Of a stretch of 64,000 nucleotides of DNA, positions 26,529 to 28,499 are shown piece by piece. A program made the translations under genes and the position numbers. The DNA comes from Escherichia phage JP4. The stretch's first letter is position 1. Every line of letters begins with the position of its first letter. Where the stretch lies: sequence record PQ330092. One strand, given 5' to 3'. The notes under the pieces were generated by a model. It was not told the DNA's origin. It saw nothing but the letters and a program-made list of their open reading frames with translations, and ran no database searches.

Positions 26529-27161
26529 TTAAACACAAGTAGACAGGGGAAGCTCCTAGTGAACAACCTTTATGTACAGGCGAATTGTTAAAATTCAGCC
26601 TGGACAAATGCGATCACTAGGATTCTCCCCAGGCTAAACCCAGTAATCATAGGTAGTCATAAGTAATCATATATAAACATTTATATGAGCACCGTAGAAT
26701 CACAGAATGATTATATATGATTCAGTACTGATTAGTATAGACAAGAATGCTCAAGAATGCACGGGAAGGATTCAGTACTGATATGCCACTAAGTAGGCAG
26801 AGGAAGTCTGCCGTACTTTGTAGTTTCCAAGCTCCTTTTCCATTTTGCAAATTACATCAAATGTAATCAAAAGTAATCACGCAATGATTAGTACTGAATT
26901 ATTACTTTCACCTTAATTACAATTACCCTTTTACCCTTCGGGGTAAAATTCAATTACCCCTTGAGGCTCCAGCAAAAAGTTGGTTAGTACTCCATCCTAA
27001 ATCTCGATCCTAAAAATTTTGGAGTACCTATGAAATAAAAGTTGGATCTTCGAAAGTTGAAATTTACGTTGGGACGTTTATGATTTGTGGGATATAATGA
27101 TGTTTGTAGACGGGTAGTTCTCAAGAATATCAGTACTGAATGGTGAAAGAAAGTTATTGAC

Positions 27162-27190
27162 ATTATGATTCAGTACTGTATAATGTTCTA
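27162..27190 (+). promoter_or_regulatory. sigma70 consensus promoter (TTGACA-N17-TATAAT) with no obvious downstream ORF
   Basis: Consensus hexamers; downstream ~150 nt lacks an RBS-preceded ORF and ends near the CCACCAGCACAAGCTGGTGG hairpin (~27370). Confidence 0.4.
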
Positions 27191-27540
27191 CATAGAGAGA
27201 TGAGTTGCTGCGAACAATTCATTTACTCTACCTCCTGTCGTGAGACAGTACAGAAAAGATAGTTCCTCCTGTGGTGGTACATCTTTTTGAACCTCATATG
27301 AAAATTGTAATAACAGTACTGATATTAACAGAATGGTGTCAGTACTGATTTTAATCTAAAGCATTATGCCACCAGCACAAGCTGGTGGATTCCCTCTAAC
27401 AGTATTCAGTACTACATGATAGTCTTCATCCTCCTAGGGTAACATAGTGAGGGCTATGATGGCAGTACTGAATACTCCCTTTCAAAAGATAGATCTATGG
27501 TATAGTACTGACGGATTTTGGGTGTAGTTACCCTGGATGG

Positions 27541-27710
27541 ATTTTGGACGTAGATATGTCTAGCCCTCCAGAAGTCTGGAAGTAAAGATGGCTATCCATC
27601 TAGACGGCTAAACGGCTAGATTTCTGGATGGCTGGATGGCTAGACGTTTGGACGGCTAAACGGCTAGATGGTTACACGTCTGGAAGTATAGACGGCTAAA
27701 TCAAAATTTT
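27541..27710. repeat. iteron-like cluster of short direct repeats (GACGGCTAAACGGCTAGAT x2, TCTGGAAGTA x2, GGATGG/GGCTAGACG)
   Basis: Direct repeats visible in non-coding DNA near the start of the 20-kb repeat unit. Confidence 0.55.
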
Positions 27711-28311
27711 ATTTTGTTTTTCCAATAGTTCCCCTACCGCGTGGGGATAGTTTCCCCGCAGTATCTGTAGTTAGATTTTTCTGAATCTGGAATCATTATC
27801 TTATAAACTGGGGGCAATGTCAACGACCTGGCCGGATATTTTTAAAAATTTTTTCAGTACTGAATTTTGGGCGTAACTATGCACCCGGTGGGCTTGAGTC
27901 TTTCTCGACTTGATGGAACTATTATACAGTACTGGAAAAATAAAGCAATACCCTGGATGAAAAAAGTTTTAATTAATTTGCTTGCCATCCTGGGCCGGAC
28001 TATGGTACTATATTTCAGTACTGAGAAAGTGCGTTTACCTGCTAGGGTGCGGGAGTGTATCCTTTTTTTATATCTTGAATTTTGGGCGTAATTCCGCACC
28101 CTCTGGGGTTTCCGCTTTCTCGCGTCTATGTAGTAATTATACGCTTTTTCAGGATCAAGTCAATACCTAAAAACAAAATAATTGAAAATAATTTAACGCG
28201 TTTAAACGGCCTGTAAAGCCCTGGAATGATTGGAATGGTGCAAATGTATAGCTTATGTGTATTAATGCGTTAGAATGCGTCTGAGGCCGTTTTATGGGGT
28301 GTAGTAGTGAT

Positions 28312-28410
28312 TTGGTTGATTCAGTACTGAATAATAGTACTCCTATATAGAAAGATAGTTCCCCTGGATTGATTCAGTACTGAATAATAGTACTCCTATA
28401 TAGAAAGAAA
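28312..28410. repeat. tandem duplication of ~38-bp unit GATTCAGTACTGAATAATAGTACTCCTATATAGAAAGA
   Basis: Two near-identical adjacent copies immediately upstream of the first early promoter. Confidence 0.6.
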
Positions 28411-28439
28411 ACTATTTTAAAAGTATTTGTAGAAAGTAC

Positions 28440-28499
28440 TTGCACCGTACTGATAAAAGCGTATAATGTTTTACATCGAGAGCGGGAACACTTCCCGCT
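28440..28499 (+). promoter_or_regulatory. early promoter (TTGCAC-N16-TATAAT) + 5-prime UTR hairpin AGCGGGAACACTTCCCGCT
   Basis: Consensus hexamers preceded by AAAGTACT; perfect inverted repeat starts ~12 nt after -10. Confidence 0.6.

Follow-up and report, generated by a model that had tools for sequence, protein, structure and literature searches.

The palindrome AGTACT is enriched throughout the genomes of Rak2-like jumbo phages and occupies fixed positions in early promoters

Introduction

Why should one end of a jumbo phage genome repeat the same six letters about ten times per kilobase? The question arose from a 64,000-nucleotide stretch of Escherichia phage JP4 (sequence record PQ330092), referred to in its entirety as the window, in which the non-coding stretch 26529-28440 is crowded with the palindrome AGTACT. 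An original prediction, made by reading the letters alone, had put the number of copies there at about 20, where chance predicts fewer than one, and had argued that enrichment on such a scale implies a function, offering a protein-binding site, a target of DNA modification and a packaging or nucleoid-organising signal as alternatives without a choice among them. By megablast, the window belongs to the genus Asteriusvirus (PBECO4/121Q/phAPEC6-like jumbo coliphages, approximately 350 kb), several records matching at 90-98% identity and none being identical. Here we report that AGTACT pervades the genomes of these phages and of their relatives, is constrained at the DNA level and lies at two fixed positions in early promoters. 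Tentatively, we regard it as the recognition word of a two-fold symmetric DNA reader encoded by the phage lineage, the likeliest form being an abundant DNA-binding protein that also gates early promoters.

Results

AGTACT is the commonest hexamer of the window

The window contains 349 copies of AGTACT, more than of any other hexamer, compared with 22.1 +/- 4.4 (maximum 31) in dinucleotide-preserving shuffles, an enrichment of about 15-fold. Nineteen copies lie wholly within 26529-28440 against approximately 0.6 expected, which bears out the original count. The window includes a perfect tandem duplication of 20,114 bp, in which 26792-46905 recurs with zero mismatches from 46906 up to the window end, and which swells the raw count. 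In the non-redundant part (1-46905; 46.9 kb), 238 copies are found against Markov expectations of 15.8 (order 0), 16.6 (order 1), 39 (order 2) and 90 (order 3). At order 4 the expectation rises to 193, but only because the 5-mers AGTAC and GTACT are then the motif itself. The original prediction had named two outcomes under which the case would collapse, namely disappearance of the excess upon correction for dinucleotide composition and confinement to one duplicated element. Neither is observed. An artefact of composition is excluded by the 3- to 15-fold excess that remains relative to dinucleotide shuffles, Markov orders 0-3 and synonymous-codon shuffles (see below); an artefact of duplication is excluded by the persistence of enrichment once the exact repeat is taken out, the density being 3.9 per kb in 1-26791, outside the repeat, and 6.6 per kb within it.

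The crowded stretch is the left physical end of the genome, inside the duplicated terminal repeat, a circumstance that the original prediction had missed. This follows because position 26792 lines up exactly with the first base of the terminal repeat of phage fEgEco12 in a six-genome alignment and because relatives carry direct terminal repeats of 20-22 kb (PMC13070987, PMC5259590). The repeat of fEgEco12 was confirmed by PhageTerm and restriction digests (PMC13070987), that of phage CBB was inferred from read depth and pulsed-field gel electrophoresis (PMC5259590). The first 1,649 bp of the genome so defined hold 17 copies of AGTACT, about 10 per kb. The order within the window is right unique end, terminal repeat, second terminal repeat; this tandem arrangement most likely reflects the layout of the record (a linear genome with both repeats, rotated) and not the biology of the phage.

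Other 6-bp palindromes are scarce in the window: 25 of the 64 are absent, all of them G+C-rich, and several A+T-richer ones, among them AAGCTT, TCTAGA and TAGCTA, are 4-7-fold depleted. This scarcity is classical restriction avoidance. Phages normally avoid restriction palindromes; AGTACT is identical to the site of ScaI (AGT^ACT), and its 15-fold enrichment is the opposite of avoidance.

All six positions of the word matter

The tetramer GTAC occurs 672 times in the window; 349 of these occurrences lie within AGTACT and the next commonest context accounts for 48, indicating that all six positions matter. In fEgEco12, a close relative whose whole genome was analysed (353,740 non-redundant bases), single-mismatch variants are present at 0.4-2.4 times the expected number, compared with 8.2 times for AGTACT itself. 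The flanking preference is symmetric, with C at -1 and G at +1, yielding the 8-bp palindrome CAGTACTG, which makes up 79 of the 349 window copies and is in 58-fold excess in fEgEco12 (221 copies versus 3.8 expected). Beside the core, C is favoured 2.6-fold and G is disfavoured (0.5-fold); a weak T/A preference is seen at +/-3 and +/-4, and otherwise the information is near zero past +/-1. The sites thus have dyad symmetry over 8 bp and, weakly, over 14 bp. This symmetry, combined with the overlap with core promoter elements described below, suggests a two-fold symmetric reader of double-stranded DNA.

The near-zero flank information, along with the persistence of the excess without the duplication, excludes a dispersed repeat element (of the kind of repetitive extragenic palindromes or miniature inverted-repeat transposable elements) or a duplicated segment. 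An origin through Dcm/Vsr-like very-short-patch repair is not supported either, as AGTATT and AATACT are found at 1.24 and 1.07 times expectation, neither being depleted.

AGTACT is distributed along the whole chromosome

In fEgEco12, AGTACT is again the commonest hexamer of the genome, with 977 copies against 119 expected. It occurs at 6.4-6.8 copies per kb within the terminal repeat and at about 2-4 per kb in other regions, corresponding to one copy per 100-150 bp at the genome end and in the early region and approximately one per 400 bp along the chromosome. Outside the repeat, coding and non-coding DNA are equal in this respect (2.49 versus 2.73 per kb) and the sites run evenly along genes. 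Ten large replication and structural genes were checked: nine hold 2.0-2.6 copies per kb, and the small major capsid gene holds 0.85. Past 40 kb, the copies are spaced a little more evenly than at random (coefficient of variation 0.92, P = 0.01) and the largest gap measures 1,976 bp, compared with 2,807 bp expected (P = 0.004). By contrast with this even cover, two islands of small genes that adjoin the left repeat on its inner side (20,857-26,616 and 29,016-37,647; 5.8 and 8.6 kb) contain no AGTACT at all; about 36 copies would be expected in them at the usual density of the genome and about 5 from base composition. These islands may represent recently acquired DNA or regions that select against the word. 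A site-specific packaging signal, one of the functions put forward in the original prediction, does not fit the uniform distribution over the genome.

The word is conserved and shapes protein sequence

Both in the window and in fEgEco12, AGTACT occupies all three reading frames. The unique part of the window has 142 coding copies, against 31 +/- 5 after synonymous-codon shuffling, in agreement with the earlier remark that the word is frequent inside genes. In fEgEco12, Ser-Thr is spelled AGT-ACT in 53% of its occurrences, compared with 13-15% predicted from codon usage, and Val-Leu is spelled GTA-CTN in 52% of its occurrences, compared with 20% expected. These dipeptides are themselves in excess (ST, 761 versus 518; VL, 743 versus 574) while TS and LV are not; therefore, the word shapes protein sequence.

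When the window is aligned with fEgEco12 (93% identity), AGTACT is intact in 91% of cases compared with 74% for other hexamers (P = 4e-10), and this excess conservation, which indicates purifying selection, holds for coding and for non-coding DNA when each is taken alone. Of 20 sites in or near the terminal non-coding stretch, 13 are identical across six Asteriusvirus genomes, compared with 27% of control hexamers (P = 5e-4). Genomes with losses have gains elsewhere, each holding 17-23 copies in the terminal non-coding stretch. At a greater distance, orthologous genes of RaK2 and fEgEco12 (47-80% amino-acid identity) contain 27 and 32 copies, respectively, in 14.2 kb and share only 7 positions. 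Thus, density is kept while positions turn over between genera. The excess conservation, the override of codon and dipeptide usage and the sharing of the word among dissimilar genera (next section) all support the original contention that the enrichment implies a function.

The trait follows the phage lineage

Enrichment of AGTACT was found in every Rak2-like genus sampled (Asteriusvirus, Alcyoneusvirus, Mimasvirus and Eneladusvirus, as well as Munch; five lineages), although these genera have little or no detectable DNA similarity (Table 1). The density in the phages exceeds that in a 50-kb sample of the host by a factor of approximately 40-100. The trait goes with the lineage of the phage, not with the host, which is poor in the word.

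Table 1. AGTACT in samples of phage and host DNA
Genome	Sample	Observed	Expected	Remarks
GAP32	1-50 kb	253	17	Mimasvirus
Yen9-04	1-50 kb	215	17	Eneladusvirus
RaK2	1-50 kb	119	17	Alcyoneusvirus; mixed metabolic/structural genes
CBB	25 kb	67	8.5	Late module
XbC2	25 kb	65	8.5	Mimasvirus, Xanthomonas isolate; late module
Munch	25 kb	42	8.4	Salmonella phage; late module
PA5oct	1-50 kb	4	17	More distant Pseudomonas relative
T4	25 kb	3	8.5	
T5	25 kb	5	8.2	
E. coli K-12	50 kb	3	11.6	About 1 per 16 kb

This distribution bears on the suggestion, made in the original prediction, that a host protein might bind the word. The one host protein with this core is the nucleoid-occlusion factor SlmA, which the phage might recruit or titrate. 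SlmA is a dimeric helix-turn-helix reader whose sites are dispersed along the chromosome and serve an architectural purpose. Its site is a 12-bp palindrome, GTGAGTACTCAC, with a central AGTACT identical to the phage word and a strong need for G1, T2, A4, G5 and a purine at position 3 (PMC3020112). The enriched phages were mostly found on Enterobacterales, and the Pseudomonas relative PA5oct has no enrichment. However, G1, T2 and the purine at 3 are absent or reversed in the phage sites, which prefer C at the third position and disfavour G, so that only 2 of the 977 copies in fEgEco12 and 1 of the 238 in the window fit GTNAGTACTNAC. SlmA sites number in the tens on the E. coli chromosome, as opposed to about 1,000 copies of AGTACT in the 354-kb phage. 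Furthermore, the unrelated coliphages T4 and T5 are not enriched, the Xanthomonas isolate XbC2 is, and the host's own DNA is depleted of the word. With the trait tracking the phage lineage and SlmA failing on its sequence requirements, we consider a host reader quite improbable.

The same data invite comparison with signals for machines that travel along DNA, such as a Chi-like attenuator of an exonuclease/helicase, a primase site or some other replication or recombination signal, which as a palindrome would be read alike on both strands and from either direction. AGTACT shows over-representation, occurrence in all frames, contrast to the host and maintenance of density, all of which are seen with Chi, the FtsK-orienting polar sequences (KOPS) and the uptake signal sequences of competent bacteria (USS/DUS); these cellular words are enriched tens-fold or more, lie in coding DNA in all frames, keep their density despite turnover, are rare in foreign DNA and form inverted pairs in terminator hairpins, as AGTACT does. 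The uniform density through coding and non-coding DNA and large genes, the even spacing with no gap above 2 kb past 40 kb, and the 40-100-fold contrast to the host, as with Chi or uptake sequences, all agree with this explanation. So do the peaks of density at the physical ends, where the first copy lies 98 bp from the left end of the repeat and the last 131 bp from its right end, the pattern expected of an end-protection signal. On the other hand, the two fixed positions in early promoters would be left unexplained, the 5.8- and 8.6-kb islands show that long site-free tracts are tolerated, and no cognate enzyme was identified. Known Chi and primase sites are asymmetric and shorter, or oriented; USS/DUS, Chi and KOPS are asymmetric words of 8-12 nt with known machines (competence pili, RecBCD and FtsK, respectively), whereas AGTACT is a viral palindrome that can have no orientation bias and is embedded in promoters as well. 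We give this explanation only a small chance.

As a separate observation, the E. coli Chi octamer GCTGGTGG occurs 24 times in fEgEco12 and its complement 12 times, each against 1.3 expected, and the Chi-related words CTGGTG and TGGTGG are enriched 5-6-fold in all Rak2-like samples. Codon usage (GCT-GGT-GG) may account for part of this excess.

AGTACT lies at two fixed positions in early promoters

Beyond the non-coding stretch, the terminal repeat carries small early genes, each with its own strong sigma70-type promoter. The preferred start of AGTACT is 7 or 27 bases upstream from TATAAT, and 26 of the 46 sigma70-type promoter matches in the repeat carry the word at one or both of these places. 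The original prediction had placed it in almost every promoter; it is frequent in them, though far from universal. Three forms can be distinguished. In the first, TTGACA-N9/10-AGTACT-G-TATAAT, the word spans -19 to -14; in variants with CATAAT or GATAAT, the TG following AGTACT acts as an extended -10 element. In the second form, AAAGTAC-TTGCAA-N16-TATAAT, found nine times in the repeat, the word overlaps the upstream edge of the -35 motif. In the third form both places are occupied, at a distance of 20-22 bp that puts the two copies on one face of the helix. Examples are listed in Table 2. The same two offsets are found in GAP32, which belongs to a different genus, and more weakly in Yen9-04. 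Early promoters of CBB were described as RpoD-like with UP-like elements, with no description of an AGTACT motif (PMC5259590). No fixed offset was found between AGTACT and the late/middle motifs TATAAATA, ATAAATA and TGAAACG.

Table 2. Features of the window discussed in the text
Feature	Position	Strand	Remarks
Nine hairpins CCAGTA-N(5-8)-TACTGG	6210..20476		At 6210, 7358, 13518, 14731, 15541, 16777, 18040, 19279 and 20460
Non-coding stretch	26529..28440		263 bp of junction and first 1,649 bp of genome
Direct terminal repeat, copy 1	26792..46905	+	20,114 bp; early/host-takeover small genes with own promoters; 133 AGTACT
Direct terminal repeat, copy 2	46906..64000	+	Identical to copy 1; cut by window end; 111 AGTACT
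Consensus promoter TTGACA-N16-TATAAT	27157..27184	+	AGTACT 27172-27177 in spacer, directly beside -10 (-19 to -14)
Two tandem 53-bp units	28316..28421	+	Each with TTCAGTACTGAA and a second AGTACT; sites at 28323, 28336, 28376 and 28389
Promoter AAAGTAC-TTGCAA-N16-TATAAT	28895..28927	+	AGTACT 28895-28900 over upstream edge of -35
Two-site promoter AGTACT-a-TTGACA-N9-AGTACT-gg-CATAAT	33906..33941	+	Centres 22 bp apart (about two helical turns); TG as extended -10

Directly upstream of the first early promoter (AGTACT at 28435) lie two tandem 53-bp units, each containing TTCAGTACTGAA. Parts of the word also occur in hairpins. The original prediction had assigned them to every late terminator hairpin, which is an overstatement: nine hairpins of the form CCAGTA-N(5-8)-TACTGG are present. 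Seven of these (13518 to 20460) lie between minus-strand RCC1-like paralogues, most with one full AGTACT in an arm, and two are upstream of that array; the early terminators in the terminal repeat are different. The array itself (7382-21652, minus strand) comprises about 12 paralogous genes of roughly 245-435 aa, which in relatives are labelled RCC1-like "regulator of chromosome condensation" or "DNA condensation"; this label is a family name only and no evidence of DNA binding. It is followed at 21737-26528 by about 20 tightly packed paralogous genes of approximately 60 aa, in which AGTACT often stands 10-50 nt ahead of the next start codon.

Could the word then lack a dedicated reader, and be a by-product of promoters, of duplications and paralogues, or of mutational or repair bias? 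Some copies do belong to the 20-kb duplication, the 53-bp units, the nine paralogous hairpins and the family of ~60-aa genes, and about 60 of the 977 copies in fEgEco12 are in promoter positions. However, the offsets of +7/+8 and +27 (start of the word to start of the -10) account for less than 10% of the copies, which excludes a sigma70 promoter element or a promoter-only origin; the remaining >90% lie outside recognisable promoters and run evenly through unique genes in all frames. The flanks, near-empty past +/-1, indicate that the word is not part of a longer repeat, and the undepleted AGTATT and AATACT argue against a drive by very-short-patch repair. Finally, the sites are conserved above background, and the word is likewise in excess in genera whose DNA shows little or no detectable similarity. 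We give the by-product explanation almost no credence, since the results on reading frames, on conservation and across genera already contradict it.

Candidate readers and DNA modification

Outside the repeat, clusters of AGTACT were considered as pointers to an autoregulated gene and gave no clear candidate. Annotated "regulators", a Dps-like protein and a zinc-finger protein received no DNA-binding assignment from Pfam or PHROG. One weak lead is gene g390 of fEgEco12 (236,311-236,529), whose 72-aa product is annotated as "transcription regulator" and in several relatives is labelled a virion structural protein. By tblastn, its homologues are confined to the Rak2-like clade, apart from a distant one in Sinorhizobium phage Phosso. 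The g390 product has no Pfam match and no sequence match in PDB; it is possible that it is a packaged DNA-binding protein, perhaps with a winged helix, as judged by eye only.

Two methyltransferases are encoded by fEgEco12, a C5 enzyme (PF00145) and a Dam-family enzyme (PF05869). The latter was found in all four genera checked and is present in fEgEco12, GAP32, Yen9-04 and Serratia BF; its specificity could not be inferred from homologues. The DNA of RaK2 was reported to be methylated, and bisulfite data implicate CpG as the target of the C5 methyltransferase (PMC3622015). Since AGTACT contains no CpG, this enzyme is an unlikely modifier of the word. The DNA of fEgEco12 was cut normally by ten ordinary enzymes, ScaI not being among them (PMC13070987), and therefore is not globally hypermodified. 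The literature searched on these phages contained no ScaI digest or modification calling at AGTACT.

These data speak to the main rival of a dedicated binding protein, namely that the phage modifies its DNA at AGTACT, for example at N6 of adenine by the Dam-family enzyme or through some site-specific base modification, and that the mark is read in the manner of GATC. Terminal and promoter clusters would then provide a replication-coupled switch or a means of sequestration, and the dispersed sites would mark self DNA or distinguish old from new strands. A strict short palindrome is typical of type II methyltransferases, the PF05869 enzyme is present in each of the genera checked, and methylation of RaK2 DNA is on record (PMC3622015). 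The parallel with GATC as used by Dam, SeqA and MutH extends to the arrangement of sites: both words are short palindromes spread over the entire genome, both form clusters in one special non-coding region and in certain promoters, and both have pairs that share a helical face. In E. coli, SeqA binds GATC pairs and oriC carries a GATC cluster; the promoter pairs about two turns apart and the 17 sites in the 1.65-kb terminal region recall this organization, and the slightly even spacing of AGTACT is likewise in keeping with it. However, modification targets are not normally enriched genome-wide, so that methylation alone would leave an 8-58-fold excess unexplained. GATC itself occurs in E. coli near its expected frequency. 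In addition, the word is invariant while Dam-family orthologues from different genera share only about 41% identity, the C5 enzyme apparently targets CpG, deaminated sites show no sign of biased repair, and no MutH-, MutS-, MutL- or SeqA-like gene is annotated in fEgEco12. On balance we think modification unlikely to be the explanation, while granting it an appreciable chance.

Further features of the genome terminus and the early genes

A degenerate tandem array with a period of 8/16/24 bp (GGCTAGAC / GGCTAAAC / GGATGGCT...) occupies 27599-27698, about 800 bp from the genome end. The interval that contains it, 27568-27742, gives blastn matches of 70-86% identity near the record ends of other phages, including GAP32, Yen9-04, Serratia BF, the Erwinia pEa_SNUABM phages and XbC2, as well as T5-like Aeromonas and Vibrio phages, phiKT and PGT2; several of all these phages are known carriers of terminal repeats. 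Judging from these matches, the array may be a conserved element related to the terminus, to packaging or to injection. Further on, an element of about 85 nt (T-run, TGAATTTTGGGCGTAA, GCACCC..TGGG, CTTTCTCG, ATTATAC) is found twice, at 27840-27960 and 28062-28182, with 78% column identity. It has no match in Rfam, and an Rfam scan of the entire non-coding stretch 26529-28440 returned no significant match.

Nearly all early transcripts (28470-46400; e.g., 28478-28500 and 36475-36500) would start with a short hairpin rich in G+C, of the type GGGGAGA...TCTCCCC or else GCGGGAA...TTCCCGC, located a few bases past the -10 motif and ahead of the ribosome-binding site. These 5'-leader hairpins are conserved. 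A composite unit, AAAGGGATTGACTCCGGTCAGTCCCTTT-GCTATTATAT, is present at 35875-35902, 39895-39922, 43164-43191 and 45422-45449; it consists of a terminator-like hairpin, the stem of which holds the -35-like sequence TTGACT, followed by the -10-like sequence TATTAT. The unit thus appears, from its letters, to fuse a terminator and a promoter in one cassette.

Discussion

The reading that we favour is that a factor encoded by the Rak2-like lineage recognizes AGTACT (CAGTACTG) on double-stranded DNA. The likeliest reader would be an abundant DNA-binding protein of the nucleoid-associated type, with a role like that of SPO1 TF1 or phi29 p6, which would coat the phage chromosome, or mark it, at approximately 1,000 sites that are densest at the genome end and in the early region. 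On early promoters, where the sites are centred at -16 and -37 on the same face of the helix, such a protein would compete with RNA polymerase and would switch early transcription, most simply by shutting it off. The statistics, the constraint on the DNA, the fixed places in promoters, the conservation and the distribution among phages are demonstrated by the data; we infer that the reader is a protein, that it is encoded by the phage and that its effect on promoters is repression.

Several points weigh against this proposal. No DNA-binding Pfam domain was found in 20 proteins of the terminal repeat and the three annotated "regulators", and Phosso, which has the distant homologue of g390, shows no enrichment of AGTACT. 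Continuous coverage of the chromosome by the word is not essential, as witnessed by the two site-free islands of fEgEco12. A methyltransferase together with a methyl-reader would yield identical sequence statistics, and at promoters the word could be read by RNA polymerase itself. Lastly, the direction of the regulatory effect is purely conjectural.

SPO1 TF1 is an HU-type protein that favours certain sites at the early promoters of the terminal redundancy. Like TF1, phi29 p6 is a genome-coating protein. Both resemble the proposed reader in binding genome-wide, in having preferred sites at genome ends and early promoters, and in their tie to the control of early transcription; moreover, SPO1 and the Rak2-like phages both carry their early host-takeover genes in a long terminal repeat. 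The two proteins differ from the proposed reader in that they respond to modified DNA or to bendability and not to a strict palindrome of 6-8 bp, and their genomes are not known to have a comparable enrichment of a word. No homologue of TF1, HU or p6 was identified here.

Genome-wide functional words are a known phenomenon, exemplified by Chi, uptake sequences and the sites of SlmA and SeqA. What appears to be new is a viral palindrome, up to 58-fold enriched, that skews the choice of codons and dipeptides and forms part of early promoters. The searched literature on these phages makes no mention of the word, the GAP32 paper lying outside what the searches returned. The case is among the strongest known to us of a DNA word shaping viral protein sequence.

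The jumbo phages of the Rak2/121Q group do not build the protein "nucleus" seen in phiKZ-like phages, their DNA is not hypermodified as in T4, and over 80% of their genes are without an assigned function. A word present in about 1,000 copies per genome, nearly absent from the host and built into early promoters offers a handle on how a 350-kb chromosome is organised, protected and timed. In practical terms, AGTACT provides a simple signature for spotting members of the clade in metagenomes, and any attempt to recode these phages synthetically must leave a layer of non-coding information in place. It is quite conceivable, though we would stop short of calling it probable, that Rak2-like phages carry a previously undescribed, chromosome-wide "self" code, made up of about 1,000 copies of the CAGTACTG type, maintained by selection that is strong enough to skew the use of codons and dipeptides, and served by a lineage-specific reader that organises or distinguishes the chromosome and times early transcription. 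If this is true, the code would be a viral counterpart of GATC/SeqA, of the SlmA sites or of Chi, and would have arisen in a group of phages that does without a phage nucleus and without wholesale base modification.

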